This document shows, piece after piece, positions 8,615 through 64,000 of a stretch of 64,000 bases of DNA. Each line of letters opens with the position of its first letter. Within the stretch, counting starts at the first letter, position 1. The notes beneath the pieces were generated by a model. That model was given only the letters and a program-made list of their open reading frames with translations. It had not been told where the DNA came from and ran no database searches. Both the position numbers and the translations under genes were made by a program. Origin of the DNA: Microbotryum violaceum (lineage: Eukaryota); contig CDLV01000009.1 of assembly GCA_001244265.2 (NCBI GenBank), positions 1,550,001 to 1,614,000 of the forward strand, read 5' to 3'.

Positions 8615-9062
8615 GCGATATTAGACCGCTCCTTTTTGGTTCTCTTTATGGGTTTCGGTTGTCCTACGATGTTTACTCCCAGTGTTGTACCATTGCGCTA
8701 TACGTTGTTCTTTCTGCATTGTCAAAATCGTGTTCCACACCCACGCTTTTGCCGGATTTGGCTCTGCCCTGACCTAAATCCCGACGACTCCGAGCACTCC
8801 CTGGGGGGGGGGGGGTAGGAGAGTGGTTTGAGATGCAACATACTTCATTTCGAAAAGCTTGAGAGGATGACGGAGCACCGGAAGGGCTCGTCAAAACACC
8901 CGGGAATAACTGGATGAAAGCGGTGGGCCGAGAAAACGCAATTCAGACGTTCAGACGGAGGGGGGAGGATGGGAAGGAGTGGGGGGGGGGGGGAGGGGAG
9001 CTCATTATCGTACTGCCGGACCGATCCTGATCACACTACGGCATAATATACTATTCGGCGCG

Positions 9063-10330
9063 TTACCACATATCTGCGAGGTTGAAGACGCGTGTGAAAG
9101 AGGAGAATGAATCATCAGCGCACGTTCAAGTACCGCGGAGACGACGTCATATCAGACAATACAATTCTCACCCTCCAAGGTCTGCAGCATGTCGGTCGAG
9201 TCGATGGTTCCTATCAGCTGCGCTGAATGAAAAGCATCGTACACGAACGGTTGGACGTACCATCTGTTTTGCGATATCTGTATTGGCGACCATGGCTTTA
9301 AAGTCTTCAAAATCGAGTTTGCCAACGCCCTTACGATCGGCCTCCATGATCGCTGTCCGGCGCAGCAGGAAGAATGTGATGTACGGTCAGTGCCATGCAA
9401 TCCGTATTCTTCGCCTTCCAACGCACTCTTGTCCACAATCTGCTGCAACTGTTGATCCTGCAAACTCCATTATGTTCGGACACGGGGTCAGTCACAGAAC
9501 TGGTTCGAGGCGAGCGATTCGGACGACTAGCCTTGAGATTGTTGCCGACCATCATCTTAAGCACCAGGAAAAGCTCCCCGTTGGAGATGTAGCCGTCCCT
9601 ATCCATATCGTACACCTTGAATGCGACTTTTGAGCGATTGAAATGCACAGACGTGAGCCACCTCGAGCATTGGACCACAATAGCCAGAATGCTGGAACTT
9701 CTCACATTTCAGCTTCTCTTCCCGCTCTCCTCGACTACTGAATGCACTCAGGCCCGCCACAAACTCTTGGAAATCGACGGTCCCACCACCGCTATGACAA
9801 TCAACATATCCGAACATTTGAAGCGGTCGTCAGCACGAGCTACTTGGCTGGCAGTCGGATTGTCGAGCGCGAGCCGATCATCCAGGCCGTGGCAATCCGT
9901 GGCAATCGCTCCCCAATCTCGAGATAAGAAAAACTTACTCCTCGTCAAAAATGGCAATCATCCGACTTGCCAATGGGTTGTTTGCGATTTGAGGAATTTG
10001 CAAGAATTCATCCTTGTCAATCGAGCCTGAACCGTCCTTGTCCAACTTCATGAAGCGTTTCTTCAGGCGCTGAATTTCGGGTGCCGAGACTGTATACATT
10101 ATGACATGACATGTTCAGTGAATAGTGTTGGAACAAGCTTTGCAGGCTCAAAAGACGATAATGCAGACAGCTGAGGGTCCACAGCCAAAGTCTGAGACGA
10201 GGTACGAGCGCCACAGGTCGAGATCGGTCCGGTCCGGTCGTGGCCGCTCTGTCCGTAGATGCAAGATGAGACACTGACAGTTGGAGTTCTTCTCCATCTC
10301 CTCCAGTAGTTGAGATTGTCCAGCTCCCAT
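9063..10330 (-). CDS. CNB1: Calcineurin regulatory subunit B
   Basis: MGAGQSQ (myristoylation Gly2), [102 protein letters not shown]. Terminal micro-exons at 9172-9181 and 9063-9073 give TLEDMW*. Confidence 0.96.
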
Positions 10331-11123
10331 TTTCGATTTGCCGATGCAGTTCTGCGACACTATCTAAGACGAGGTAGATGCGGTAAATGCGTTGCTCTGC
10401 GAGTCGGACGTCGTACGTTCGCCTGTGCTTATGCGAGTGAGATGAATTTGATGATCCGGTGGATGGGTCGGTCGAGGAGTCGGAAGGGTTTTGAGATCAA
10501 AGCGCGTCCGGAAGTTCCGAAGGTGGCGTCCTGTCTTGCTTGCGTGGGGGCTGTCGCAATCCCCAGCGAGGTTGTGACGTGACGCAACCACCCACCGCGT
10601 GCGCGCTCGGACCCCTTCGGATTCCCCTGTCATAAGCTAAATTAACTTGAAGCTTGCCAGATCGCGCGAAGTTCACGTCGTATATGAGAGCAAGGTCTGA
10701 ACTGAAGGATATTCCTGTTGTCATCGCACCCCGCTTCTCGCTGATCTTGATTCTTGAAGGAGACCTCCGACTTGGACGAAATAATTGGATCAATCTGAAT
10801 GAGTCTGTCGGAACCCTTGTAAGGACCGGCGCCTGCGGCAGCGCCGCGCTGCGCGCTGCGGCCCGCCTAAGGCTTTCGAGCCTCGCAGCGGCTCTACATG
10901 CTTTTGAAAGGCGGCAAATACAATTTTAAGATATAGCAGAAAATTTTGTCAACATTACAGCGAAATGGTGATAACCCCTTCCTGAGCCGAGAGCAGCAAC
11001 TGCTTTCTTAGAGAACGTAGAAGCTGAATTTCGCATAGCAACATTGGCAGCGTTACGGGTGACCTGCCGGATACATGACACCGAGATCATGTCGGTAACC
11101 AATGATATCCCATTATACAACAG

Positions 11124-12943
11124 TTAGATGGGTGCCAAACCGGTCAGCGAGCGGAAATTTTCGAAGAATAGCAGCGAAAGGACCGAATGCGGCCAGAGGC
11201 GCAAGAAGCACATGGTGAGACCCCGATAAAAGGCCAACGGGCCGTCGTTCCGCAATACCATGGCCGCGCAATGGAGAGTGTTTAGGTACTGCCCAGTAAC
11301 ATCCGACATCATTCGAACCTGTAGGATGAACAGAAGTTCGAGTCAGGCTTGTCCATGCCAAGATGCCGAACCCAGCTCGGCGCGCAAGGTCCTGGCGACC
11401 AACCTTGACGACGTCGACTGCGGAACGATGCAGCCCAGAGGAGTGAGTTAGCGGGATCAAAAGCTTTGATCAAACCAATGCAATGGTTTGTGAAATACCT
11501 GGGCTGGAGACTATGGAACACGTGAATCCTGCCACCCCGCTGGCAATGAAGTGGGTGCGAAAGCCTTCCCGGAACGTGTCTGGAAAGTCGTTCATCAAGC
11601 TGCGTAGTTCGCCGTGTTGTGGCGAAGAGTCGCATATTTCAGTGTCAGCAAACTCGCGACACCGACAGAAGATTCTTTCTTTTGCCTTTCATTTTTTGAC
11701 TCACGTATGCTTGGCATGATCGTACGTCCCAAGTTGAGAAGCTGTTAAGATGCCTGCCCGCAGCACCGTCGGGGCAATGGCGCGATAGAGCCCCGCCACA
11801 CCCCCGGTTCCGACGATATCTTCGACATGCCATCGGAGCGTTCCAATTGCGCCTTTTGACTGCATTCTAACCTTGAGCTACGAGAAAAAGAGGTGTGCTG
11901 GTGAGCTGCGCGGGGTCTACTCCCCCGGAGGTGAAGGGTTTTAACTTGCCAAATCGGCCGGGTTTGCCACGGCGGCACCAAGCATCCCACTCGTCATTCC
12001 AGCCGTCAATTTCGTGGCGAAGGAACCTTCTTCCGCCCACGGAAGGGCCACCAAAACAGCAGCTTTACAGCTGTCGTAAGCGCCCATTCGAAGCCCTCTG
12101 AAAAAGGCGAATGAAAACCCGATCAGCAGTTGCGCTGGCGCTGGGGAGGATAGAGACCGTGGTCGAAAGTGCCGCAACATGAGTGAAAACGGCCTTCAGT
12201 CGAAAGGAGAACACCTTGGGGTGGGTTCATGTAGGCGATCTAGTCTCATGCAGAATTGAGTATCTGCAAAGCATCGAAAGCCGGTCCCAACTTCGTAGAT
12301 GTTGCAGTGCCAGGCCGATCGTGTCGACGAGTCGGCGAATAACCGTCCCCAGGACGAAGCTCCGAAGACAACATCGCATCCGGGTCTGAACTCACGAATA
12401 CGTCATTTCACGCAACATGCTGGCGGAAAGTCCTTTGTAGAGGGATAACGGCCCTTCTGTTTTAAACATGGTTCGCATTGTGGTAGCCCAGTTGGTCGTG
12501 GTTCGATCGGGTTGCAATTGTTGCCGAACCTTGACACTGCCATGGAAGAAAATGTTGAAATTAGAAATGCCTATGTGCTACTCCGTATGCGAGGATGAAC
12601 ATATTGTTCAACTGACAGATCAAAAGGATTTGTCACGAGGGAAGCGGCCTGTGTTGCAGTGGTCGCGGAGTTCAGCAGCGGCAGGCACATCTCGGCGGCG
12701 AAGAGCTGTCTTGCTGCACTTCGCAATTCGTTCTCGGGACAGTGATAGCTTCCAGTAACAGAATCACTCAAGCTCACACAAACCTTGCGATAAACTTGCC
12801 ATGTTGGAAACGCCCGCCAGCAGGACCTTCTGAGCGAGCATGCTCAAGTGACTCGCTTCCGATGCGCCGGCCCCCACTTTTGGAGTTGAAACCGGGGCAA
12901 TGGGAGGAGGCGCCAGATGATCAGCATGCTGGGCTTGACGCAT
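11124..12943 (-). CDS. Mitochondrial carrier (SLC25; UCP/dicarboxylate/oxoglutarate-carrier-like), multi-exon
   Basis: Three carrier repeats with P-x-D motifs (TNPFD, ANPAD, S-x-P-V-D-V-V-K), GPLSLYKGLSASMLRE, RMGAYDSCK and GPLAFYRGLTMCFLRLWPHSVL. Start codon uncertain (12943 or 12841); substrate not assignable by eye. Confidence 0.85.
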
Positions 12944-13060
12944 GTCCTCCAAGCCGCAGAGTTCTCTGGGAGAATGATGCTTGGCGGCCGCAAGACGGGT
13001 GCCAAGCAACAGGCTTCATCAGCGAACCGCGCACGCGCGATTCCCTCGATCAAGGATTCG

Positions 13061-41533: not shown

Positions 41534-43905
41534 TGGTCAAGCACACCATCATCACCTGGAACGTGAGAAGGGGCATGGGGGTCCTGGAGAAACGATGTGA
41601 CATTTACAGCTACCTATCCCATTTCAAAGCATCGGCCATTCTCATACAAGAGCACTTCATCAGACTGCACCTCTGGCAACTCATCAAGGACGAGTACAAG
41701 GGCAAGCTCTTCATCAACCAACATTGCCTGACTCTGATTCCGGCTGACTCCCCACTGATTGACACCAAGCTCTTGTGCACCCACTTGGCACTCAACAGAC
41801 GGATCCTGGTCACCTCCTTTTGTCTGCAGGGTGACACCAAAATTTTCAAAATGAACAACATATACGCGCCCGTTGAACCAAAACAACGAGCAAAATTCTT
41901 TGACAAACTATTATTTCACAAAACACAGAAATCCCACCTCCGACTCCTTGGCGGTGATCTCAACGACTGCCCGCGCCCAGAAGTCAATCGGCGGAACCAA
42001 AGTTGGCGCGGCCACCACTGGCCAATCCTGATCGGCAAGCTCAACTCGGCCTACACGGACTGCATCCGCTACAAACACCCCATCACCCCATGCTTCACTC
42101 GACCTAATCCCAATCGCAAGTGACCCAACTCCTTCTCCCGGCTTGACTACTTTCTCCTGCAACGGACACACCAAAAAAGACTTGACCAGGCCTCAACAAT
42201 CTACGACTATCCCAAGGAGCTTTCCAATCACCGACCGGTCTTGATTGTGCTGGCTCTCAGACAATCCTGATGCGACCCTCCCACAGCTCAGCCTACCTAC
42301 CACATCAAATCAACACCACAACCTTTAAGATGGTGGAATTCCAGCAGATGATGGAAGGATGGTTGGAAGGGGCAAGCGGGGAGGAACCGGTGGAGGAGCT
42401 CAAGGTCATTCTGAAGGCATGCAGGGATAGGGGTGGGGAGATGGCGAGGAGGTTGCATCGGGAGTGGACGGAACGGATGGAGTATTTGGTGGGGAGGATG
42501 CAGGATCTGGAGGCGATACCGGAATGGGGGGAGCGAAAACGGCAGAATGGACAAGGACGTCCGAGGAACTCAAGCGGGCAGTCGAGGAGCGCACGCACCT
42601 ACTCCGGATTCGAGCCCACTTCCCCAAGATTGACTCCGAGGAACGACTGTCGCGGCCGGCCTATGCCAAGCTCGCGGTGCGGAACTCGGACTCCAAGATC
42701 ACAGCACTGCGCTTGAGCAACGGAGAGCTAACGCATGACATTGATGTCGCTCTTGACCACACACAGGCGCATTTCCTGTGAAGAGTCCACTCTCAGCTCC
42801 ACAGAGGCGCCTCGGTCGTCGCGCGCACCCGCTAGCCCGCCCCTTGCGGTGGGGACTTAGGCGCGCGCGACTGCCTCAGCGAGCAGGCGCCAGCGGACTC
42901 GGGCGCGCGCCCGCTAGGCCGCCCCCTAGAGGTGGTGACTTAGACGCGCTCAGCTGCCTCAGCGCCCTAGCGATTTCACCCGCGGCTGGGCCTATCCCAG
43001 TGCGGGCCCCCTTTCTGTTTCTTAGCTTCCCTCTCACCACTTCTGTTTGACAATCAACCTCTCCTGACAGTAGTGGTGATCGTCTCATATTTCCAGCGCC
43101 TCTACCACATTGAGCCTCTTGATCTGGACCGCGTCGACCGACTTTGGGACGAATTCCTCACTCCAATCAGGGCAGCGCGGACTTGCGACAACCCACGCTT
43201 GGATCCTCTCTTTCTGCGCCGACTCTCGGAATCGCAGATCGATTTACTCCAGCGACCAATCACCAAGGACAAGATCGTGGCCGCAATCGGGACGATGCAC
43301 CCGGGGTGATCGCCGGGACCATTGGGTGTGCCCTACAAACTCTACCAGACCGCACCCAAGGCTTGGGCCAAGATGCTGACCAAGGCCTACAACGCAATGA
43401 TCAAGCGAGGCTCACTCTCTCCCAAGCAGGGCCAGGGACTTGTGCACCTCATCTTCAAGCGACACAAGAAGAATGCCAATTGCGCCAAACTTTCCTCGTA
43501 CCGGCCGATCACCCTGCGCGAGTGCGATTACAAGGTCTTTACCAAGGTCTATGTCGCCCGTTTGAACCAGATTCTACCCAATCTCCTCCCGCCGCAGCAG
43601 CACAGATTTGTCAAGGACCGCCAATTGGCTGACGCTGCACTACACCTTCGTCTCCTGATCGAGGAACTTGGCGCGTGCAGGACCAAGTTCCCCGCGGCAG
43701 CGCTCTTGTCTCTTGACCAATCATCCGCCTACGACCTTGTCGAGCATGAGTGGATCTTTGCCATCTTTGACGCTCTGGGCGCTCCTGCCACCTTTCTTCG
43801 CGTGCTGAGGATGCTCTACTCGGGTGACTCAACCTCGGCCCGCTACATCATCAATGGGTTCCTGACGGTGCCGGTGCGACTGACATGTGGGCTTGGCCAA
43901 GGGGA
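41533..43905 (+). pseudogene. LINE ORF2: AP-endonuclease plus reverse transcriptase N-terminal part
   Basis: ITWNVR, LIQEH, NIYAP, LGGDLND, SRLDYF and HRPV (APE). [27 protein letters not shown] and GLGQGD (RT). Stops, frameshifts and a solo LTR inside. Confidence 0.92.
42777..43089 (+). mobile_element. Solo LTR, Copia family A
   Basis: TGTGAAGAGTCC...GATCGTCTCATA with 5-bp TSD TTTCC. Homologous to 51029-51339 and 58001-58313. Confidence 0.93.
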
Positions 43906-46900
43906 TGTGAGGAATCCACTCTCCGCTCAGCTCAGGACTTAGGCGCGCAGAGCGAGCCTGGCGCACCGGCCCAGGACTTAGGCGCGCGCTCGCCTGGCGC
44001 ACCGGCCCAGGACTTAGGCGCGCGGAACAAGCCAGGCGCACCGGCTCAGGACTTAGGTGCGAGGAGTGAGCCTGGGACTTAGGCGCGCGAAATGAGCCTC
44101 GCACACAGCCCCAGGACTTAGGCGCGCAGGGCGAGCCTGGGCCATTGGCTCAGCCCCAAGGTTCGCAGCCTGAGGACTTGAGGCGCGCGGCTCTCTTGTT
44201 GTTAGCTTCCTATTCATCACTCTTGGCTATAACTACATCGCTGACGTAGTAGAGTTGATCGAATAGGTATGTTGTAATGATTCATCACTCTTGGCTATAA
44301 CTACATTGCTGACGTAGTAGAGTTGATTGAATAGGTTATCAGCCCACGAGCTACCAGCCTCGCCGCCTTGCGTTTTTTTTTCCTCGAGCTTAGCCACTCG
44401 ACCGCACACATCCATTCGCACCATGGGCAACTCTCCCGCTCCCGCACCGCCCTTGCCCCCCAAGGATTCTCCCAGCCCCCCTGAATCCTCGATCGCCGCA
44501 CAAATTGCAACTCTACAGGCACAGCTCGCTGCCCTGCAGGCCTCGCACTCTCCCGCCACCGCTGCCCCCGCACTCCCGGCCGCCCCCGCCACGCAGACCA
44601 ACGCCGCTACCTCATCCAAAGTCGTGTTTCCCAAACACGCTCGCCTCGACGGTCCCAAATCGTTCACCAACTGGTTGCGTCAACTCCGTCTTGCGCTCCC
44701 GAATCAAGTCCGTGCTTATGTCCTCGAAGGTGTCGTTCCCGCTACTTGGACGGCCGATCAGCTTGCCGCCCGTGACGACGCCGCCCGGGAACTCATTGTT
44801 GGCTCTATCGACTCCGCGGACGTCTCGGCCACGCTTGACGCCATTCCCAGTGACGATCTCTCAGCACCGCGCATCTTCACCGCTCTCAAGGCTCGCTTTG
44901 CACCGGACGATGCTACCCGCACCCTCGAGTTGTTCGCCCGCCTTTGGATTTCAGGAAGATGCCTGCCTCCGTCGAGGCATACAACACCTGGCTGCGCGAG
45001 TACATGTCCATCGTACAAGAAATTCGCGACACCAAAACTTTGCTCAACGACGTACTCGCCACTCACGTGCTTGCCATGGTCCCATCGTGCCTCGACAGCT
45101 TCCAACTCACGTTCACGGACGAGCAACGCCACCAACGCGACCTTCCCGAGCTGACGACACTGACCAACGCATTTGCGTCCAACTTCGTTCGGCGGGACTC
45201 TCCACCTTGCACTCGGCCATGCTCGCTACCGCCTCCCTATGCCCCGCCTGCCGCGCCCCCAGTCACCGCCTTCGTGACTGAACCTCACGCGCTCAACACC
45301 CCCCACCGGCCCCTGCCGTTGCTGCCACAAGAAGGGTCACTGGGCCCTCGACTGCAAACCGCGAGGCGACCAAAAACGAACCGGCGACGACAACCAGGAC
45401 AACACACCCTCATTGGCGGCTCAACAACCGAATGTCGGCTATTTCGCCTCCTGCCTGCTTGCTTGCCGCCATCTCCCGACCGACGCCTTCGTCGTCGACT
45501 CGGGCGCCACGACACACATGGTCGCCGATCGCTCGCTGTTCACGACTTATCGTCAGACGGCGCACACCAGGGTCGGCGGTATCGCAGGCGGCATCACGGC
45601 CATTGGCATGGGGGACGTGGCGTTCATTACCAAGACCGGACACCCGATCATGTTGCGTGGCGTTCTTCACACGCCTGGTCTTCACGTCAACCTTCTCTCT
45701 GTCTCTTGCCTCTGCAACACCGACCGTGTTCGACTCGCCTTCACCAGCGACGGGATCGACATTGCCAAGGACGGCCAGGCCATCGCTCACGGGACTCGCG
45801 TCAACGACGGTCTCTACCTTTTGGATGCGGACCACACCCAATGTCAGCAGCTTGCCTTGCTCTCACATTCTGAGTCTCCCGTGCCCCTGCTTACCCTTCA
45901 CCGCTGCCTCGGCCATCTTGCCCCATCCTCCATACAGAGGATGATTGCTGCAGGTTTGCTGGACGGTTTCGGGGCCGGGTACAGTGACAAAGACGTAGAC
46001 GAGTTTGTTTGCAATGCTTGCCTTGGTTCCAAAGGCCACCGTCTTCCTTTTGCCGACTCTGAGTCGCATTCCCCGAGCGACTTGGTCTAGTGCACAGCGA
46101 CGACTTGTCCTTCCCCACTCCGTCCTTGACTGGGAAGCGCTACCTTGTCACATTTCTTGACGACCACTCACGTAAACTCTGGGCATACGCAATCGATCAC
46201 AAAAGCGATGTCTTCCCAATCTTCAAGACTTGGCTCGCCGAGGTAGAATTAGAGACAAACGCGCGCTTGAAGATCCTCCGCTCCGACAATGGTGGAGAGT
46301 ATCGGTCCAACGCATTCACGGAGTTCTGCGAATCCAAGGGCATTCGTCGTCAATACTCTATCCCTTACACGCCTCAGCAAAACGGTCGCGCCGAGCGTGT
46401 CAACCTCTCCATCGTCGAGGGTGTCCTTGCTCTCCTCGCTGACTCCCGTCTGCCAGCTACCTTTTGGGATGAAGCGGCCGCGTACTTCGTTTATTGCAAA
46501 ATCAGGTGCTCACACTCCGCTTTGGCCAAACAGACTCCGGAATTCGTTTGGAACGGCCAACGCACCACCACCACCGCCCTTCACCCGTTTGGCTGCGCGG
46601 CCTGGCTCACGGTCGCCCCGGATCTTCGCAGCAAGCTGGACCCCAAGGCCGCGCGCGTGATCTTCACCGGTTACGACCTCGCCTCCAAGGCCTTCCGCTT
46701 CTTCGACCATTCCGCCAACAAGATTGTGCTCGGTCGCAACGCCACCTTCCTCGACAACGATTTCCCTGGCCTACCCATCAACACGCCCGTCGATGCAGAT
46801 GACACCGACCGCCAGTTTATTGTGCCCACCGACACACCCACCGCCGTCAAGACGAGGACCCCACTAGTAAGGTCGGCGCACATGGACGTCTCATCCTCCC

Positions 46901-49278
46901 TTGATGATTCTGTCATGAGCGCCGTTGATGTGGCCCCAGGGTACACTGGCGGATCCTTACTTAATTCTACAGATACTAGTCCCTCGCCGTCGCCGTCGCT
47001 TGCCCTGCTCTCGTCGCCCACCACGTCCTCGACCGGGGGACCGTCCCCCGACGACTCGGATGACCCGCTCGACCTCTTCAGCTCCAACACCGCGGTCCGT
47101 CTCAACCTGATGGACGTGCATCGGTCCGACGACAATACACTGGACGGCCAGGCACCAGCCGTTGACCCTGTTGACCCGCCCTCTGATGACGACTCTCCTG
47201 ATGAGATCGATTTCCTCTCTCGCCACCACCGCGCATTCATCGCCACAGACGACGACGACCCCACCCTTGAAGCGATTGAACCCGTCAAATCGATCACCAG
47301 CGACCCCCAGACCTGGCGCAAAGCAATGTCCAGCGACAAACACGACATGTGGGCTCAGGCTGCCGCCGCCGAGTTCACCGCCATGCACGACGACTTCAAG
47401 GTCTTCACCATCGAACCTCGCTCAGCCGTACCCCGGGCGCCACTGTCGTCACCTCCAAGTTCGTCTGGAAGACCAAGCGTGACGCACAGGGTAATGTCAC
47501 CGGGCGAAAGGCACGTCTCGTAGCGCAAGGTAACCGCCAACGCGACGGCATTGACTTCTCGGAGACCTTCGCACCCGTCGCCCGTTTCTCCTCCATCCGC
47601 TGCCTCCTCGCCCTTGCCGCTGCCAATGGTTATCACGTTCACCAGGCCGACATCGACAAAGCTTACCTCCACGGCGAGCTCGATCACGACATTTGGATGA
47701 CGACGCCATGAGGTTTCGACTTCCGAGCGACCAGGTTCTCCGGCTGCGGCGCTCGATCTACGGTCTTAAGCAGGCCGGTCGCATCTGGAATCGCCACATT
47801 GACACATCGCTCAGGAGTCTTGGGTACACGGCAACGGGCACTGATCACTGCATTTACTCTCGCATTGATGATCAGCAGCGACCTCACTATATCGCCCTGT
47901 ATGTCGATGACCTCCTCATTGTCAGCCCCGTCCTCGATGAGATCGAACGAGTTATCTCCGGCCTTGAACGGTGATACGGCGTCAAACGACTCGGCCCCGC
48001 GGAGTACATCCTCGGCATCCAAATCCGCCGCCTGGATGACGGCTCCATTGCCCTGTCTCAGGAGCGCTACATCATGGACGTACTTACTCGATTTCATTTC
48101 GACACCACTACTCGCGGGGCTATGGTGCCAATGACCCCCGGCCTCTCACTCACGGCAATCCTGGGTCAGGGGACGGAGCGCATTCGATTGTGGTACCTAC
48201 AAGCCATTGGCTCCCTCCTGTACGTTTCCCTTGGCACTCGACCCGATATTGCCTTCGCCGTCTCGTACCTGTCCCGGTTCGCCAACAACCCCGGCCAACG
48301 CCATTGGATTGCCGTCAAACATGTCCTTCGCTATCTTCGCGCCACGTACCGGGACGAGCTTCTATATGCCACGGTCCAACGAAAGTCACAGGTGTAGTTG
48401 GTTATTCTGATGCGAACTGGGGTGCCTGTGTCGACACATCCATCTCCACAATGGGCTACGTTTTCTACTTGGCTGGCGCCGCCGTCTCTTGGTCGTCCAA
48501 GCGTCAGACTCGGGTCGCGGATTCCACCACTGATGCCGAGTACCTGGCTTTGTCGCACGCTGGTAAGGAGGCCATTTACCTCACACAACTCCTCTCCGAG
48601 CTCCATGTTCGCCCGATCGATGCAGCCCACATCTTCACCGACAACGAGGCCGCGGCCGCCGTCGCTCACGACCCCGTTCGCACCTCCGGCACTCGGCACA
48701 TCAGTCTCCGTGAGCACTTCGTCCGCGACATGGTCAACCAAGGCAATATATCCCTCTCCCACATTGGCACAGCGAACATGGTTGCGGACCTATTCACCAA
48801 AGCGCTAGGTCCCAAGATTTTTGGTACGCATTGCTATGCTCTGGGCCTCCGGACGCGACACCCACGGCTCAAGTCTACCTCGCGTTCGCGTGGGGGGGGG
48901 GGGGGGGGGGGGGGGGGGTGTGAGGAATCCACTCTCCGCTCGGCTCAGGACTTAGGTGCGCAGAGCGAGCCTGGCACACTGGCCCAGGACTTAGGCGTGC
49001 GCTTGCCTGGCGCACCGGCCCAGGACTTAGGCGCGCGGAACAAGCCAGGTGCACCGGCTCAGGACTTAGGTGCGAGGAGTGAGCCTGGGACTTAGGCGCG
49101 CGAAATGAGCCTCGCACACAGCCCCAGGACTTAGGCGCGCAGGGCGAGCCTGGGCCATTGGCTCAGCCCCAAGGTTCGCAGCCTGAGGACTTGAGGCGCG
49201 CGGCTCTCTTGTTGTTAGCTTCCTATTCATCACTCTTGGCTATAACTACATCGCTGACGTAGTAGAGTTGATCGAATA
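43906..49278 (+). mobile_element. Ty1/Copia retrotransposon family B, copy 1 (full length, disabled)
   Basis: 360-bp LTRs at 43906-44265 and 48919-49278; PBS GGTTATCAGCCC 44334-44345; domain order gag, PR ([11 protein letters not shown]), IN ([18 protein letters not shown]), RT ([12 protein letters not shown]), RNase H ([15 protein letters not shown]); G-run PPT 48892-48918; frameshifts and stops. Confidence 0.97.
46846..46974 (+). other. Conserved 129-nt putative structured cis-element in the Copia IN-RT linker (also 53351-53479 and 57573-57701, both on -)
   Basis: Near-identical in families A and B while the flanks are not alignable by eye; contains several complementary segments. Confidence 0.6.
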
Positions 49279-51028
49279 GGTTATAAGCTCACGAGCTACC
49301 AGCCTCGCCGCCTTGCATTTTTTTTTCTCGAGCTTAGCCACTCGACCGCACACATCCATTCGCACCATGGGCGACTCTCCCGCTCTCGCACCGCCCTTGC
49401 CCCCCAAGGATTCTCCCAGCCCCCCTGAATCCTCGATCGCCGCACAAATTGCAACTCTACAGGCACAGCTCGCTGCCCTGCAGGCCTCGCACTCTCCCGC
49501 CACCGCTGCCCCCGCACTCCGGCCGCCCCCGCCACGCAGACCAACGCCGCTACCTCATCCAAAGTCGTGTTTCCCAAACACGCTCGCCTCGACGGTCCCA
49601 AATCGTTCACCAACTGGTTGCGTCAACTCCGTCTTGCGCTCCCGAATCAAGTCCGTGCTTATGTCCTCGAAGGTGTCGTTCCCGCTACTTGGACGGCCGA
49701 TCAGCTTGCCGCCCGTGACGACGCCGCCCGGGAACTCATCGTTGGCTCTATCGACTCCGCGGACGTCTTGGCCACGCTCGACGCCATTCCCAGTGACGAT
49801 CTCTCAGCACCGCGCATCTTCACCGCTCTCAAGGCTCGCTTTGCACCGGACGATGCTACCCGCACCCTCGAGTTGTTTGCCCGCCTTTGGGATTTCAGGA
49901 AGATGCCTGCCTCCGTCGAGGCATACGACACCTGGCTGCGCGAGTACATGTCCATCGTACAAGAAATTCGCGACGCCAAAACTTCGCTCAACAACGTACT
50001 CGCCACTCACGTGCTTGCCATGGTCCCATCGTGCCTCGACAGCTTCCAACTCACGTTCACGGACGAGCAACGCCACCAACGCGACCTTCCCGAGCTGACG
50101 ACACTGACCAACGCATTTGCGTCCAACTTCGTTCGGCGGGACTCTCCACCTTGCACTCGGCCATGCTCGCTACCGCCTCCCTATGCCCCGCCTGCCGCGC
50201 CCCCAGTCACCGCCTTCGTGACTGAACCTCACGCGCTCAACACCCCCCACCGGCCCCTGCCGTCGCTGCCACAAGAAGGGTCACTGGGCCCTCGACTGCA
50301 AACCGCGAGGCGACCAAAAACGAACCGGCGACAACAACCAGGACAACACACCCTCATCGACGGCTCAACAACCGAATGTCGGCTATTTCGCCTCCTGCCT
50401 ACTCGCTCGCCGCCATCTCCCGACCGACGCCTTCGTCGTCGACTCGGGCGCCACGACACACATGGTCGCCGATCGCTCGCTGTTCACGACTTATCGTCAG
50501 ACGGCGCACACCAGGGTCGGCGGTATCGCAGGCGGCATCACGGCCATTGGCATGGGGTACGTGGCGTTCATTACCAAGACCGGACACCGATCATGTTGCG
50601 TGGCGTTCTTCACACGCCTGGTCTTCACGTCAACCTTCTCTCTGTCTCTCGCCTCTGCAACACCGACCGTGTTCGACTCGCCTTCACCAGCGACGGGATC
50701 GACATTGCCAAGGACGGCCAGGCCATCGCTCACGGGACTCGCGTCAACGACGGTCTCTACCTTTTGGATGCGGACCACACCCAATGTCAGCAGCTTGCCT
50801 TGCTCTCACATTCTGAGTCTCCCGTGCCCCTGCTTACCCTTCACCACTGCCTCGGCCATCTTGCCCCATCCTCCATACAGAGGATGATTGCTGCAGGTTT
50901 GCTGGACGGTTTCGGGCCGGGTACAGTGACAAAGACGTAGACGAGTTTGTTTGCAATGCTTGCCTTGGTTCCAAAGGCCACCGTCTTCCTTTTCCCGACT
51001 CTGAGTCGCATTCCCCGAGAGACTTGGT
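49279..51028 (+). mobile_element. Copia family B, tandem copy 2 (shares LTR 48919-49278), truncated by the family A insertion
   Basis: Repeats PBS, gag, PR and GAG-pre-integrase nearly identically to 44334-46086. Confidence 0.95.
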
Positions 51029-55374
<4,346 letters not shown>

Positions 55375-57930
55375 TATTCGATCAACTCTACTACGTCAGC
55401 GATGTAGTTCTAGCCAAGAGTGATGAATAGGAAGCTAACAGTGTGAGAGCCGCGCGCCCCAAGTTTCCCAGGCTCGCTCCGCGCACCTAAGTCCTGAGCC
55501 GATGCGCCGAAGTCCCAGGCTCGCTCTGCGCGCCTAGCCCTGAGCTGATGCGCCCGGCTCGCTCCGCGCGCCTAAGTCCTGAGCCGATGCGCCTGGCTCG
55601 ATCCGCGCGCCTAAGTCCTGAGCCGAGCGGAGAGTGGATTCCTCACACCCCCCCCCCCACGCGAACGCGAGGTAGACTTGAGCCGTGGGTGTCGCGTCCG
55701 GAGGCCCAGAGCATAGCAATGCGTACCAAAAATCTTGGGACCTAGCGCTTTGGTGAACAGGTCCGCAACCATGTTCGCTGTGCCAACGTGGGAGAGGGAT
55801 ATATCGCCTTGGTTGACCATGTCGCGGACGAAGTGCTCGCGGAGACGGATGTGCCGAGTGCCGGAGGTGCGAACGGGGTCGTGAGCGACGGCGGCCGCGG
55901 CCTCGTTGTCGGTGAAGATGTGGGCTGCATCGATCGGGCGAACATGAAGCTCGGAGAGGAGTTGTGTGAGGTAAATTGCCTCCTTACCAGCGTGCGACAA
56001 AGCCAGGTAATCGGCATCAGTGGTGGAATCCGCGACCCGAGTCTGACGCTTGGACGACCAAGAGACGGCGGCGCCAGCCAAGTAGAAAACGTAGCCCATT
56101 GTGGAGATGGATGTGTCGACACAGGCACCCCAGTTCGCATCAGAATAACCAACTACACCTGTGACTTTCGTTGGACCGTGGGCATATAGAAGCTCGTCCC
56201 GGTACGTGGCGCAAAGATAGCGAAGGACATGTTTGACGGCAATCCAATGGCGTTGGCCGGGGTTGTTGGCGAACCGGGACAGGTACGAGACGGCAAAGGC
56301 AATATCGGGTCGAGTGCCAAGGGAAACGTACAGGAGGGAGCCAATGGCTTGTAGGTACCACAATCGAATGCGCTCTGTCCCCTGACCCAGGATTGCCGTG
56401 AGTGAGAGGCCGGGGTCATTGGCACCGTAGCCCTGCGAGTAGTGGTGTCAAAATGAAATCGAGTAAGTACGTCCATGATGTAGCGCTCCTGAGACAGGGC
56501 AATGGAGCCGTCATCCAGGCGGCGGATTTGGATGCCGAGGATGTACTCTGCGGGGCCGAGTCGTTTGACGCCGTATCGCCGTTCAAGGCCGGAGATAACT
56601 CGTTCGATCTCATCGAGGACGGGGCTGACAATGAGGAGGTCATCGACATACAGGGCGATATAGTGAGGTCGCTGCTGATCATCAATGCGAGAGTAAATGC
56701 AGTGATCAGTGCCCGTTGCCTTGTAGCCAAGACTCCTGAGCGATGCGTCAATGTGGCGATTCCAGATGCGACCGGCCTGCTTGAGACCGTAGATTGAGCG
56801 CCGCAACCGCAGCACCTTGTCGCTCGGGAAGTCGAAACCTTGTGGCGTCGTCATCCAAATGTCGTGATCGAGCTCGCCGTGGAGGTAAGCTTTGTCGATG
56901 TCGGCCTGGTGAACGTGATAACCATTGGCAGCAGCAAGGGCGAGGAGGCAGCGAATGGAGGAGAAACAGGCGACGGGTGCGAACATCTCCGAGAAGTCAA
57001 TGCCGTCGCGCTGGCGGTTACCCTGCGCGACAAGGCGTGCCTTCTGCCCTGTGATATCACCCTGTGCATTGCGCTTGGTCTTCCAGACGAATTTGGAGGT
57101 GACGATGGTGGCGCCCGGTGGTACCGAGGAACGAGGCTCGATGGTGAACACCTTGAAATCGTCGCACATGGCGGTGAACTTGTCGGAGGCGGCTTGAGCC
57201 CAGAGGTTGTGCTCGTTGCTGGACATCGCTTCACGCCAGGTCTGAGGGTCGCTAGTGATCGATTTGACCGGCTGAATGGCTTCGAGGGTGGGGTCGTCGT
57301 CGTCGGTGGCGATGAAGGCGCGGTGATGACGAGAGAGGAAATCGATCTCATCAGGGGAGTCGTTGTCGGAGGGCTGCCCGGGCCAACGGCGGGTGTGGGT
57401 GTGACCAGGGTGTCGTCGTCGGATCAATGTACGTCCATCAGGCGGAGGCGAACCGCGGTGTCGGAGTGCAGAAGGTCAAGCGGATCATCCGAGTCCTCGA
57501 TGGACGGTACCCCCCTGAGGACGGGGCGGGAGACAAAATCGGGGCGAGCGACGGAGACGATGAGGGGCTGGTATCTGTAGAATTAAGTAAGGATCCGCCA
57601 GTGTACCCTGGGGCCACGTAAACGGCGCTCATGGCAGAATCATCAAGAGGGGATGAGACATCCATGTGCACCGACCTTACTAGTGGGGTCCTCGTCTTGA
57701 CGGCGGGGCGGGTGTGGCGGCGGGGTGCGCGTGTCGGCGGTGTCAGGCGCTGGCGTGTCGGCGGGAATGACAAACTGGCGTTCGGCGTCGTCCGCATCGA
57801 CGGGCGTGTTGACTGGTAGGCCGGGGAAGTCGTCGTCAAGGAAGGTGGCATTTCGGCCAAGCACAACCTTGTTGGTGGAATGGTCGAAGAACCGGAAAGC
57901 CTTGGAGGCGAGGTCGTAACCAGTAAAAAT

Positions 57931-58313
57931 TATGAGACGATCACCACTACTGTCAGGAGAGGTTGATTTGTTGAACAGAAGTGGTGTATTTCAGCATACC
58001 TATGAGACAATCACCACTACTGTCAGGAGAGGTTGATTTGTTGAACAGAAGTGGTGAGAGGGAAGCTAAGAAACAGAAAGGGGGCCCGCACTGGGATAGG
58101 CCCAGCCGCGGGTGAACTTGCTAGGGCGCTGAGGCAGCTGCGCGCGTCTAAGTCGCCACCTCAAGGGGCGGCCTAGCGGGCGCGCGCCCGAGTCCGCTGG
58201 CGCCTGCTCGCTGAGGCAGTCGCGCGCACCTAAGTCCCCACCGCAAGGGGGCGGCTAGCGGGTGCGCGCGACGATCAAGGCGCCTCTGTCGAGCTGAGAG
58301 TGGACTCTTCACA
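57931..58313 (-). mobile_element. Solo LTR family A with duplicated 3' end
   Basis: LTR 58001-58313, 14-nt spacer 57987-58000 and a 56-bp end duplication 57931-57986, all within TSD AAAAT. Confidence 0.92.
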
Positions 58314-58837
58314 AAAATCACGCGCGCGGCCTTGGGGTCGAGCTTGCTGCGAAGGTCCGGCGCGACCGTGAGCCAGGCCGCGCAGCCGAACGGGTGAAGG
58401 GCGGTGGTCGTGGTGCGTTGGCCGTTCCAAACGAATTGTGGAGTCTGTTTGGCCAAAGCTGAGTGTGAGCACCTGTTTTTGCAATAAACGAAGTATGCAG
58501 CCGCTTCGTCCCAAAAGGTGGCCGGCAGGTGGGAGTCAGCAAGGAGGGCGAGGACGCCCTCGACGATGGAGAGGTTGACACGTTCGGCACGGCCGTTTTG
58601 CTGAGGCGTATATGGAATAGAGTATTGGCAACGAATGCCCCTGGACTGGCAGAACTCCGTGAACGCGTTGGATCGGTATTCGCCGCCGTTGTCGGTGCGA
58701 AGGATCCGTAGACGCGCGTCCGTTTCTAACTCCACTTCGGCGAGCCAAGTCTGGAAGGTCGGGAAGACGTCGCTTTTGTGATCGATTGCGTATGCCCAAA
58801 GTTTGCGAGAGTGGTCGTCAAGGAAGGTGACAAGATA

Positions 58838-61800
58838 TGTGAGATCAAATATCTCCTTCATGTCCTTCTTGTATCTTGCATCTACCTCAACATCCTCCTC
58901 TCTTCATTTTTGATCACTTTTGGCCTACTTTTCACCACTCTAGCTCTCCCACTCTGGGCCAGGTCCGTGCGCCTGACTCTGGCTGGGCACTTAGGCCCAG
59001 CCAGCTGGCCCCTCCCTGGTTTCTCTCCTGCTCAAGCAACTTCTTGGTCTGGTCTCCCTTGGTCCTTCGATCAGAGACTTACCACCGCTTGAGCAGGTGA
59101 GCACTACTCTTCCTATCATCTTTCATCCCTCTAGATGTGGTAACTTACGGTAGTGCTTGAGCAGGTGTGTAACAAGCAACTTCTTGGTCTGGTCTCCCTT
59201 GGTCCTTCAATCAGAGACTTACCACCGCTTGAGCAGGCGTGACAACATCACAGTCGGGAACTCACCATCCCCTACACACCCCAGCAAAATGGGCGTGTTG
59301 AGCGCAGCAATCGCACCATCAAGGAGGGTATCCTTGCTCTGCTCTACTCCTCTGGCGCTGATTCACGCCTCTGGGGTGAGGCCGCTTTGTACTATGTGCA
59401 CTGCAAAAATCTGATGCCTCACGCCGGCATTGGTGGTGAGATCCCCGACACTCGTTGGCATGGCTTTGCGCCTGACATCTCCACCCTTCGCGCATTTGGC
59501 TGCCGCGCTTGGCACCACCTTCCCTCGGCCAAGCGCACGGACCTCGACCCAAGGCTGTACCCCTCCTGTTTGTTGGTTTTGACCAACATGCCAAGGCTTT
59601 CCGACTCTTTGAGCCGTCCACACGCAGGATACAACTCAGCCGCAATGTCGTCTTCCGTGAATCCGAGTTCCCTGCACTCCGGCCAGCCACCAACGTTCGC
59701 GCTGAACCAATCCCACTCCCCGTCATCATTGACGCATACCCTGACCAGGTAGACCCCTTACGCCTTTGCTCGTTGCTTCCCCTCGCTCACTCGCGCCTTG
59801 CGCTGAGCCACCTCGACCCGTGCCGGCAGCCCCTGACCAGGGCCCGCACCGTCCCTCCCCTGCCCGCGAGGTCCCTGACCAGGACTCGCTGGCACCCCCT
59901 GCCCCTGACCAAGGCTCCCCTGCTCGTGAGCTCCCTGACCCGGAATCTCCTGCATCAAGCGCCTCTGACCAAGGCAGCTCCAACTCGGCCATCTCCACGC
60001 CTTGTCCTTCCCCGCGCCCCGTGGCCTCCCGTGTATTACCAGCACCATCCTCACCCGCTCGGTCCGACTCCCCGGACCCGATCGATCTCCTGCCACGCCC
60101 ACGCAATGTTGCTTTGCTATGCCAGGCGCAGGAGTTTCCCGACGATGTGGATGACGCACTCCACTCACCCTCTGCCGTGGCCTACCTTGCCTCTGGCGCT
60201 GCCGCCCTCATTGAGACCTCGCCCGCCGACCCTGCGGAACTGATTGCCCCCGCTCGCGACCCACCTCACTGGCGAGCGGCCATGGCCACCCCTCAAGCGG
60301 ATGAATGGCGTCTTGCGGCCCGCGACGAGTTTGACTCACTCTTGCGAGATTTTTCGGCGTTCACACCAATTGACGAGTCCCTTGTCCCAGCAGACGCCAA
60401 GGTCCTGGGCTCCCGCTTCGTCTTCCGCACCAAACGCGACCAGCATGGCCAAGTCAAGTCCTACAAGGGCCGTCTCGTAGCTCGTGGTGACTCCCAACGC
60501 TCTGGCATCGACTTTGACGAGACCTTCGCACCCGTGGCCAAATTCACCTCCATCCGCGCACTCCTGGCTCTTGCTGCTGCTCATGGGTACCACGTCCACC
60601 AGGCCGACATTGACAAAGCCTACCTGCACGGCAAACTCGATGCACCCCTGTACATTCGTGTACCCGATGGCATCTACATGCCAGGCAAGGTCCTCCAACT
60701 GCATCGGTCCCTCTACGGCTTGCGCCAGGCCGGTCGCATCTGGAACGACGAGATTGACTCTGCCTTGTCCGCACTTGGCTATGTTGCCACCGAATCCGAC
60801 CACTGCGTCTACGTCAGGACAATGGGCGATGTGCGCCACTACATTGCGCTCTATGTCGACGACCTGCTCATGATCAGCCCCTCTCTCCCCGAGATTGAGC
60901 GTACCCTTCAGGGTCTTGAGCAGCGCTATGGTGTCAAACGGCTTGGTGAGGCGGAATATGTCCTCGGCATTCAGATCCGGCGTTCTCCAGACGGCTCCAT
61001 CTCCCTGAGTCAGGAGCAGTACCTCAAGGACGTCCTTGCTCGATTTGGCATGTCCGACGCCCATCCGGTCGCAACTCCCATGCAGTCTGATCTCCGCCTT
61101 GAAGTCGAGCTCCAGCCCACCCCTTTTCCGGATCGCACTCGGTACCTGCAAGCCATTGGCTCCCTCATGTATGCATCCACTGGTACTCGACCCGACCTGG
61201 CTTACACCGTTGGTTACTTGGCTCGCTTCTCTCACTCGCCTTCTGCTGCTGCCTGGGGAGCTGTCAAGCACGCCTTCCGTTACATCGCTGGCACTCTTCC
61301 TCACGGCTTACGCTACACTTGTGGGGATCCGGCACCGCTCTTGGGCTACTCCGACTGCAACTGGGTGCATGCGTCCTCTCTTCCAAGTCGACCATGGGTT
61401 ACACTTTTGTCTATGCAGGTGCTGCCGTCTCATGGTCCTCCCGGCTTCAATCGCGCGTTGCTGACTCCACTTGTGACACCGAGTACCTCGCACTGTCACA
61501 CGCTGGTAAGGAGGCAATCTTTCTGCGTCAGCTTTTTGGTGAGCTTGGCCTTTCGTCTTCAAAGCCCGTCCTCATCTACGGCGACAACCAAGGTGCCAAT
61601 GCTCTCACCAAGAATCCGGTATTTCATGCTCGGACTCGGCACATCTGCCTGCGCGAACACTTCGTCCGGGATATGGTTTCCATGGGCGATATTGTCGTCC
61701 AGTACATCAACACTGGTGAGAAGACAGCGGACATCTTCACCAAAGCATTGTCACGCGACCTCTTTGCTCGGCACCGCGGTCGACTTGGTATCTGTGCTCC

Positions 61801-62168
61801 CTGATACTCGAAGTAGGGGGGTGTGAGATCAAATATCTCCTTCATGTCCTTCTTGTATCTTGCATCTACCTCAACATCCTCCTCTCTTCATTTTTGATCA
61901 CTTTTGGCCTACTTTTCACCACTCTAGCTCTCCCACTCTGGGCCAGGTCCGTGCGCCTGACTCTGGCTGGGCACTTAGGCCCAGCCAGCTGGCCCCTCCC
62001 TGGTTTCTCTCCTGCTCAAGCAACTTCTTGGTCTGGTCTCCCTTGGTCCTTCAATCAGAGACTTACCACCGCTTGAGCAGGTGTGTAACAAGAAACTTCT
62101 TGGTCTGGTCTCCCTTGGTCCTTCGATCAGAGACTTACCACCGCTTGAGCAGGCGTGACAACATCACA
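58838..62168 (+). mobile_element. Copia family C element lacking PBS, gag, PR and IN N-terminus
   Basis: LTRs 58838-59252 and 61822-62168, TSD AGATA. Internal part starts mid-integrase ([14 protein letters not shown]), then RT (YKGRLVARG, YVDD) and RNase H. PPT AGTAGGGGGG. Confidence 0.95.
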
Positions 62169-64000
62169 AGATAGCGTTTCCCGGTCAAGGACGGAGTGGG
62201 AAACGACAGGACATCGCTGTGCACGAGACCAAGTCTCTCGGGGGAATGCGACTCAGAGTCGGGAAAAGGAAGACGATGGCCTTTGGAACCAAGGCAAGCA
62301 TTGCAAACAAACTCTTCTACGTCTTTGTCACTGTACCCGGCCCCAAACCCGTCCAGCAAACCCGCAGCGATCATCTTCTGTATAGAGGATGGAGCAAGGT
62401 GGCCAAGGCAGCGGTGGAGGGTAAGTAGGGCACGGTAGACTCAGAGCGTGAGAGAAAGGCAAGCTGCTGACATTTGGTGTGGTCCGCATCCAGGAGGTAG
62501 AGACCGTCGTTAACCCGTGTACCGTGAGCGATGGCCTGGCCGTCCTTGGTGATGTCGATGCTGTTGCTGGTGAAGGCAAGCCGAACGCGGTCGGTGTCAC
62601 AAAGGCGAGAGACGGAGAGAAGGTTGACGTGAAGGCCCGGCGCGTGCAGAACGCCGCGCAACGTGATCGGGTGTCCGGTGTTGGCAACAAACGGTACATC
62701 CCCCATGCCAATGGCCGTGATACCGCCGGCAATGCCGCCAATCCTGGTGTGCGCCCTCTGACGATAAGTCGTGAACAGCGAGCGATCGGCGACCATGTGT
62801 GTCGTGGCGCCCAAGTCGACGACGAAGGCGTCGGTCGGGAGATGGCGGCGAGCGAGCAGGCAGGAGGCGAAATAGCCGACATTCGGTTGTTGAGCCGCCG
62901 ATGAGGGTGTGTTGTCCTGGTTGTCGTCGCCGGTTCGTTTTTGGTCGCCTCGCGGTTTGCAGTCGAGGGCCCAGTGACCCTTCTTGTGGCAGCGACGGCA
63001 GGGGCCGGTGGGGGGTGTTGAGCGCGTGAGGTGCAGTCACGAAGGCGGTGACCGGGGGCACGGCAGGCGGGGCATGGGGAGGCGGTAGCGAGCATGGCCG
63101 AGTGCGAGGTGGAGTGTCCCGCCAAACGAAGTTGGACGCGAATGTGGTCGGTCAGCGTCGTCAGCTCGGGAAGGTCGCGTTGGTTGCGTTGCTCGTCCGT
63201 GAGCGTGAGTCGGAAGCTGTCGAGGCACGATGGGACCATGGCAAGCACGTGAGTGGCGAGTACGTCATTGAGCGAAGTTTTGGCGTCGCGAATTTCTTGT
63301 ACGATGGACATGTACTCGCGCAGCCAGGTGTCGTATGCCTCGACGGAGGCAGGCATCTTCCTGAAATCCCAAAGGCGGGCAAACAACTCGAGGGTGCGGG
63401 TAGCATCGTCCGGTGCAAAGCGAGCCTTGAGAGCGGTGAAGATGCGCGGTGCTGAGAGATCGTCACTGGGAATGGCGTCGAGCGTGGCCGAGACGTCCGC
63501 GGAGTCGATAGAGCCAACAATGAGTTCCCGGGCGGCGTCGTCACGGGCGGCAAGCTGATCGGCCGTCCAAGTAGCGGGAACAACACCTTCGAGGACGTAA
63601 GCACGGACTTGATTTGGGAGCGCAAGACGGAGTTGACGCAACCAGTTGGTGAACGATTTGGGACCGTCGGGCGAGCGTGTTTGGGAAACACGACTTTGGC
63701 TGAGGTAGCGGCGTTGGTCTGCGTGGCGGGGGCGGCCGGAAGTGCGGGGCAGCGGTGGCGGGAGACTGCGAGGCCTGCAGGGCAGCGAGCTGTGCCTGTA
63801 GAGTTGCAATTTGTGCGGCTATCGAGGATTCAGGGGGGCTGGGAGAATCCTTGGGGGCGAGGGCGGTGCGGGAGCGGGAGAGTTGCCCATGGTGCAAATG
63901 GATGTGTGCGGTCGAGTGGCTAAGCTCGAGGAAAAACGCAAGGCGGCGAGGCTGGTAGCTCGTGGGCTGATAACCTATTCGATCAACTCTACTACGTCAG

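Follow-up and report, generated by a model that had tools for sequence, protein, structure and literature searches.

How can two clearly different Ty1/copia retrotransposon families share one short piece of their coding sequence almost letter for letter, when the sequence on either side of it has diverged? The question is raised by a 64,000-nt stretch of the Microbotryum violaceum genome (assembly GCA_001244265.2, contig CDLV01000009.1, positions 1,550,001 to 1,614,000), hereafter the window and numbered from its first letter, in which we delimited nested elements by self-comparison and Pfam domains and assigned them to Ty1/copia by their domain order and long terminal repeats (LTRs). Members of two families, element A on the one hand and elements B1 and B2 on the other, carry the same 129-nt segment, S, in the linker between integrase and reverse transcriptase (RT). 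With a probability of roughly 0.55, we consider S to be an ordinary translated stretch of the disordered linker that joins integrase to RT in A-type and B-type lineages, and its near-identity between A and B to be that of a short recombination-derived tract, used for exchange among co-resident copia lineages. Against this reading we weighed a facultative intron, a selected peptide and a structured RNA.

The original prediction, made from the letters of the window, had placed the same 129 nt at three sites, one on the forward and two on the reverse strand, and all three copies were located there (Table 1), with 92-95% identity. The B2 and A copies align with the B1 copy over all 129 nt (blastn); no fourth DNA copy was found by blastn in the 64-kb window, and a tblastn search of the window with the S peptide returned only the same three copies, the next-best match having an E value of 0.034. 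In a global alignment of A and B1 (~3.6 kb), the 129-nt window of highest identity is exactly 46846-46974 (92.2%), compared with a mean of 71.2% over all windows (standard deviation 10.4; n = 3624) and with 83.7% in the best non-overlapping runner-up. The observation is therefore real and far beyond chance. S begins 27 codons past the end of the SH3-like part of integrase and lies well ahead of the RVT_2 domain: rve and SH3_retrovirus stand upstream of it in B1 and A, and RVT_2 downstream, in the B2 open reading frame (ORF) at 56153-57475. A third family, C, has a readable linker (59260-60400) in which S was not found, as the same prediction had noted.

Synonymous divergence between A and B1 (Nei-Gojobori counts) sets S apart from its surroundings. 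The synonymous distance (dS) is 0.13 in S as against 1.3-1.9 outside it, that is, ~15-fold lower, and a comparison of synonymous sites, which had been proposed as a check, gave a proportion of synonymous differences (pS) of 0.12 in S vs 0.62-0.69 in the neighbouring regions, so that S is far more conserved at these sites than its neighbours (Table 1). The flanks and LTRs of the two families diverge, in agreement with the first reading of the sequence: the variable linkers on the two sides of S, U upstream and D downstream, have pS values of 0.62-0.64 with indels, and the LTRs (313 bp in A-type, 368 bp in B-type elements) did not match one another in BLAST at E≤1e-10. Likewise, the near-identity of S was confirmed at all codon positions, the mismatches at first, second and third positions being 4/2/4 between B1 and A, 2/2/3 between B1 and B2, and 4/2/3 between A and B2; protein-level selection alone cannot account for the identity. 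From 10 changes, the ratio of non-synonymous to synonymous distance (dN/dS) within S comes to ~0.5, most of the differences being non-synonymous. Together with the even spread over codon positions, this ratio appears to be the mark of a recent common origin followed by neutral decay, and not of selection on the protein.

The two B elements were compared in the same way, and they differ at 7 of 129 sites in S vs 28 of 186 in the adjoining integrase C-terminus; when CpG-type changes are left out, the counts become 4 of 129 and 16 of 186, a contrast that we judge weak. S is poor in TCG/CGA sites (1.6 vs 5.4-7.0 per 100 nt) and in CpG (5.4 vs 9-11), has a GC content of 0.535 vs 0.63-0.64 in the linker flanks, and is more T-rich than these. 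A foreign origin on grounds of composition was nonetheless rejected: although S stands out from the low-complexity flanks, it is ordinary for the element as a whole (among 129-nt windows its GC content ranks at the 12th percentile). A mutational cold spot was discarded as well, as it may explain part of the contrast between B1 and B2 but not the one between A and B.

The history of S also departs from that of the elements. The integrase core of A shares 87% identity with that of the M. intermedium family (P0072) and 78% with that of B1, and an integrase tree rooted on the distant copia pair P0060/P0121 has B as the first to branch off, ahead of A and M. intermedium. The S peptides of A and B differ at only 5 of 43 residues (88% identical), whereas the M. 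intermedium S (P0102) is 58% identical to that of B1, and S therefore stands off the tree of the elements and lacks long-term conservation. The divergence of the P0102 segment is about that of the adjoining linker U (estimated by eye from the printed linkers), and a search with this segment found no second M. intermedium copy of S.

To place the window's copies among their relatives, S was surveyed in 120 of the 289 relatives of the integrase-linker ORF, and all the counts that follow are among the matches listed. The relatives from the protein search all came from Microbotryum silenes-dioicae, M. saponariae and M. intermedium, which points to a host of the anther-smut type, and S was recognised in full 50 times, counting A and B1 of the window itself. 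Throughout these 50 copies, residue 4 (R or W) always tracks the type of the left flank and residue 37 (S or T) always tracks that of the right flank. Sixteen of the 50 constitute a hybrid family from M. saponariae, in which R4 and a B-type left flank are combined with T37 and an A-type right flank; judged by its flanks, this combination would be the product expected from a crossover inside S, and the 90% cluster of the hybrid representative holds 110 member sequences. A-type and B-type copies occur together in the window and in two of the named species, and each of the two variants of codon 18 (TCC and CCT in the window, a two-base difference) is found in A-type as well as in B-type backgrounds. 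A swap of a module between the families, which had been one of several options in the original prediction, is thus favoured by the drop of pS in S, the tree conflict, the hybrid family and the shared codon-18 variants. Adjacent segments with conflicting histories, parents co-resident with hybrids, and a young, neutral-looking tract are all found here, as is proper to recombinant tracts.

Sequences deposited in public runs were examined as contigs in four cases: X1, X11 and X13, of DNA type, and X18, guessed to be RNA. The contigs of all four join S to A-type and B2-type flanks, with loose ends at 46840, 46841 and 46974. The word-depth of the contigs, which is neither copy number nor a ranking, was compared between the four bins of S (46841-46964) and the neighbouring bins. 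It reached 28,830-56,295 over S in X1 (918-3,768 upstream and 1,270-1,418 downstream), 1,059-2,214 in X11 (37-143 and 103-185), 7,930-12,983 in X13 (448-1,856 and 797-908) and 213-498 in X18 (21-271 and 77-83), an excess compatible with more copies carrying S than carry B1-type flanks. The two letters changed at codon 18 agree in depth and contig count in X1, X13 and X18 and almost agree in X11. When the S peptide was searched as a profile against 1.84 billion representative proteins, eight matches came up at E≤0.001, seven of them copia polyproteins of Microbotryum and the eighth an unrelated repeat protein, and two exact patterns taken from S had no matches in metagenome contigs. A captured fragment of a host gene was rejected as the source of S, there being no other copy in the 64 kb and all seven genuine peptide matches, obtained with the S reading frame, being copia.

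As for how the tract may have arisen, one family would have received a short patch from the other, either because reverse transcription switched template between co-packaged RNAs or because ectopic gene conversion altered one copy, which would then have become a master. Later crossovers in S would have re-assorted integrase-side and RT-side modules; apart from these 129 nt the families have no long stretch of identity, and such crossovers would therefore fall within them. We infer a molecular route of one of these two kinds, copy choice or gene conversion, and the lack of a function of S as nucleic acid. Mosaicism elsewhere in these elements counts for recombination too, B1 and B2 relating differently in RT-RNase H, integrase and LTR: their identity is 98-100% over 47600-48850 (RT-RNase H; compared with 55420-56700), 80-88% in integrase and 75-82% in the LTR, and the step probably marks a recent crossover near 47560-47600. 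The tandem arrangement of B1 with a shared LTR is a further sign of recombination in these elements.

Recombination of LTR retrotransposons is well known, Ty1/Ty2 hybrids occurring in yeast, and as a recombinant tract S is a further case of a known event. In Arabidopsis, recombinant (mosaic) elements of ONSEN/ATCOPIA78 are formed in reverse transcription (PMC5668417; review PMC6894440). The mosaic elements and S have in common an exchange of segments among co-resident, related elements, which leaves copies with parts of unlike history, and breakpoints in stretches of identity; mosaic hybrids can become prolific, as in the cluster of 110 described above. S differs from mosaic systems in being very short, isolated, and situated between families whose synonymous sites are saturated (dS ~1.9) instead of between members of a single family.

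Several points weigh against a recombinant origin. A patch of 129 nt needs two switches in flanks that are only 60-75% identical, which is not easy, and no junction footprint was found for it. The outgroup argument rests on one protein, P0102, and the DNA of three copies only was at hand for covariation. The contrast between B1 and B2, with S more alike than the integrase C-terminus, goes in the direction expected of constraint. Moreover, the 3' end of the identity falls 2 nt past the YAG that follows a branch-point-like motif, and a good splice donor stands 21 nt from the 5' end of S; a random tract need not look so.

The last two features are central to a different explanation, which we hold to be unlikely, namely that S contains a facultative intron that controls expression by splicing. 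The donor would be CTA/GTAAGG (the slash marking the junction), removal of 106 nt from B-type copies would stop translation before RT, in-frame acceptors would serve A-type copies (291 nt) and M. intermedium (114 nt), and the conservation of S would stem from overlapping coding, splice-signal and regulatory constraints, for instance from a stem between donor and branch point. The possible intron pointed out at first, GTAAGG...CTACAG with a frameshift ahead of RT, stands up as a matter of sequence: the GT...AG ends, the CTTAAT/CTTAC branch-point-like motif before CTACAG and the length of 106 nt, typical of fungal introns, are kept in three of three window copies, and removal shifts the frame and brings in a stop after 45 (B1), 85 (A) or 29 (B2) codons. 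Public EuGene-type gene models from three Microbotryum species leave S at most 3 residues from the donor in 54 of 109 occurrences of the pattern K.xTPL (43 of the 53 models with an A-type left flank and 10 of the 53 with a B-type one), and the commonest junction in them, TPL/PQVRLD, matches a 291-nt GT...AG interval in the window's A copy. The M. intermedium protein P0107 is without exactly the 38 residues that its near-twin P0102 keeps, and in P0102 the ends of S (PLVR, NSTD) are conserved and the middle is not; S is, besides, less GC-rich and more T-rich than the linker flanks. The models that use the donor are predictions, however, and their diverse acceptors (PQVRLD, YSADPL, TPTRLG, PSSSPS, VSTYRE and others) resemble the rescue of ORFs in decayed copies. 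The 291-nt version deletes a motif of linker D, DPLDL, which A, B1 and B2 keep as a peptide while differing at synonymous sites, and this interval is for that reason probably not constitutive. Nor is the composition of S extreme within the element, the closing stem adds no stability beyond that of shuffled sequences, and truncation after integrase would lack the Gag excess of known copia or BARE splicing. None of the contig joints listed is at 46866/46973 and none of the loose ends listed (all but 20) is at 46866, which speaks neither for nor against the intron, since contigs show presence and not absence. A more specific version, somewhat less probable again, would combine the fixed donor with family-specific acceptors (in frame at 114 nt in M. 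intermedium and at 279-291 nt with A-type right flanks, frame-breaking at 106 nt in B-type copies); some interval-less gene models could then be retrocopies of spliced RNA, and a regulatory fold might hide donor and branch point. An introner or miniature inverted-repeat transposable element was rejected: the shared unit is 129 nt and not 106, the loose ends lie at the borders of S, and a homologous segment occupies this place in M. intermedium too. Searches of the text of papers found nothing on S or on introns in Microbotryum copia elements. Elsewhere, BARE1 has a facultative 104-nt intron in its single copia ORF, shown by cDNA, which is alike in BARE1 and BARE2 while the sequences by the splice sites diverge (PMC3735527), and the shGAG splicing of Ty1/copia elements in Arabidopsis was shown by RNA profiling (PMC5580714). 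The candidate is like both in being a small GT-AG interval within a single ORF, the removal of which shifts the frame and ends translation (PMC3735527, PMC5580714); by contrast, the known copia introns are situated where gag meets protease and produce an RNA for Gag alone, whereas the candidate comes after integrase and would remove only RT-RNase H.

Function in the protein or in a non-spliced RNA would be the other ways for S to be constrained. S may be a selected peptide of the integrase C-terminal tail, making contact with a host factor or a target or forming part of a protease site, that was spread by recombination, its nucleotide identity then telling of recency only; we find this about as doubtful as the intron. 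Targeting determinants of Ty1 and Ty5 do sit in integrase C-terminal tails. S is open in frame in three of three window copies, with four other frames stopped in all of them and the fifth broken in B2, is retained in 55 of the 109 model occurrences, and varies between families at residues 4, 18 and 37 only among the 50 full copies. Nevertheless, 43 open codons have a chance of ~0.18 at this composition, so that the open frame says little, and both the dN/dS ratio of S, with its mostly non-synonymous changes, and the 58% identity between the M. intermedium copy and that of B1 run counter to a maintained peptide. No Pfam family covers S (P0001 residues 262-304), its profile finds only these elements plus the one unrelated repeat protein, and AlphaFold2 (15-row alignment) returned a low-confidence model, hence weak evidence, with a predicted local confidence score (pLDDT) of ~29-34 over S and almost no secondary structure. 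An antisense ORF was also rejected: it is uninterrupted in B1, and in A over the length of S, but a stop breaks it in B2. We regard as less probable than either the intron or the peptide that S is a structured cis-acting RNA under RNA-level selection without splicing, whether a packaging or dimerisation signal, a ribozyme-like fold or an internal priming element. Its nucleotide conservation is independent of codon position, and the stems drawn by eye at first are present in the minimum free energy (MFE) and alifold structures, where three one-sided changes keep G-U pairs. The MFE z-scores against dinucleotide shuffles (RNAfold), however, are -0.34, -1.46 and -1.03 for the three copies, 82, 17 and 33 of 200 shuffles folding at least as well, and the antisense strand and the flanks score like S. 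The 33 alifold pairs, from three sequences with 13 variable columns, too few for a lack of covariation to count as negative, comprise none with compensatory changes, three changed on one side and one broken, and 4 of the 13 variable columns fall in paired positions vs ~6.6 expected, which is not a clear depletion. A check against Rfam covariance models, suggested together with the new RNA element, was negative: a scan of 42000-64000 gave three matches, with E of at least 4.1 and none over an S copy, and S itself is without a match at E≤10. S has no complementarity longer than 9 nt to the rest of B1, a length that shuffled S reaches as well, with nothing beyond chance to leader, LTR or 3' end, and the M. 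intermedium copy has diverged. With no Rfam match, a fold no better than shuffles and no long-range pairing, the RNA element of the original prediction was not supported. The 3' polypurine tract consists of 27 G, unlike S, and a central polypurine tract was discarded on the same ground.

If recombination is the correct explanation, S is a clean small-scale example of the exchange of parts among co-resident fungal retrotransposon families, in which a 129-nt island marks the birthplace of hybrid lineages, one of them the most prolific among the M. saponariae proteins listed. This matters for the dating and classification of transposable elements in Microbotryum, where their accumulation on mating-type chromosomes is studied, and trees of LTR or RT alone would mislead. 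If the intron were true instead, it would place splicing-based control after integrase; to our knowledge, none of this kind has been described for copia elements.

Table 1. Segment S, its surroundings and the elements that carry it (window positions), with divergence between A and B1 where calculated
Feature	Position	Strand	Details
Segment S, B1 copy	46846-46974	+	codons 262-304 of open frame 46063-47523
Segment S, B2 copy	57573-57701	-	94.6% identical to B1 copy
Segment S, A copy	53351-53479	-	92.2% identical to B1 copy; in frame in ORF 52715-54493
S, A vs B1			pS 0.12 (4/33 sites); dS 0.13; dN 0.065
Integrase core, A vs B1			pS 0.69; dS 1.94; dN 0.18
Upstream linker U, A vs B1			pS 0.62
Downstream linker D, A vs B1			pS 0.64
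Candidate intron, B1	46867-46972	+	106 nt, GTAAGG...CTACAG
Candidate in-frame intron, A	53168-53458	-	291 nt, GTAAGG...TCACAG; stretch skipped by TPL/PQVRLD models
Element B1	43901-49281	+	LTRs 43901-44268 and 48914-49281, 97.8% identical
B1 integrase core and SH3-like	46108-46767	+	Pfam: rve 46108-46374, SH3_retrovirus 46555-46767; upstream of S
Upstream variable linker U, B1	46768-46845	+	family-specific
Downstream Ser/Pro-rich variable linker D, B1	46975-47130	+	family-specific
Element A	51029-55209 (5' end ~55209)	-	cut short at 5' side; 3' LTR 51029-51339, 313 bp
Element B2	55373-57930	-	integrase C-terminus to 3' LTR; other pieces 58314-58837, 62166-64000

Around the copies of S, the window holds further features of the nested elements. 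B1 is directly followed by a second partial internal region (49282-51028), the stretch 49225-51028 being 98.2% identical to 44280-46086; B1 and this region appear to form a tandem or complex element in which the middle LTR serves two internal regions. Complex or tandem elements with an LTR in common are known (PMC1950507), and it is the neighbourhood of B1, not S, that resembles them. An uninterrupted run of 27 G (48892-48918) stands just upstream of the B1 3' LTR, at the place expected of the polypurine tract. An A-type solo LTR and element C break up B2; C is nested in it at 58838-62083, with LTRs at 58838-59099 and 61822-62083 (99.6% identical) and an internal region that begins in mid-integrase and is without gag, protease and the integrase N-terminus; a C-type LTR fragment is also present at 55210-55374.

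The 313-bp LTR occurs three times, at 42777-43089, 51029-51339 and 58001-58313, with 91-95% identity; the second of these is the 3' LTR of A, and the other two look solo, one of them inserted in the B2 integrase region. Tandem repeats are found in the LTRs of both families, with 39-bp units repeated ~3.7 times in the B-type (43933-44141, 48941-49154, 55466-55626) and an 82-bp unit present twice in the A-type (51155-51311), and in both they are built around a GACTTAGG(C/T)GCGCG-like core, while the LTRs otherwise do not align.

The motif D-P-(L/I)-D-L lies in linker D, at 47062-47076 in B1, and is kept at the protein level in A, B, M. intermedium and C-type elements, the C-type version being DPIDLL near 60100. 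The synonymous differences among A, B1 and B2 within it suggest a translated functional site, which may be a protease site or the border between integrase and RT. Many public gene models of at least 2000 residues (P0003, P0005, P0011-P0016 and others) fuse two or three retroelements, for example two copia polyproteins, or a copia polyprotein and a non-LTR RT, and are not to be taken for natural fusions. Finally, the Ser/Pro-rich linker D of A contains a 24-nt unit three times in a row at 53272-53343, which fits a turnover of the linker by replication slippage.

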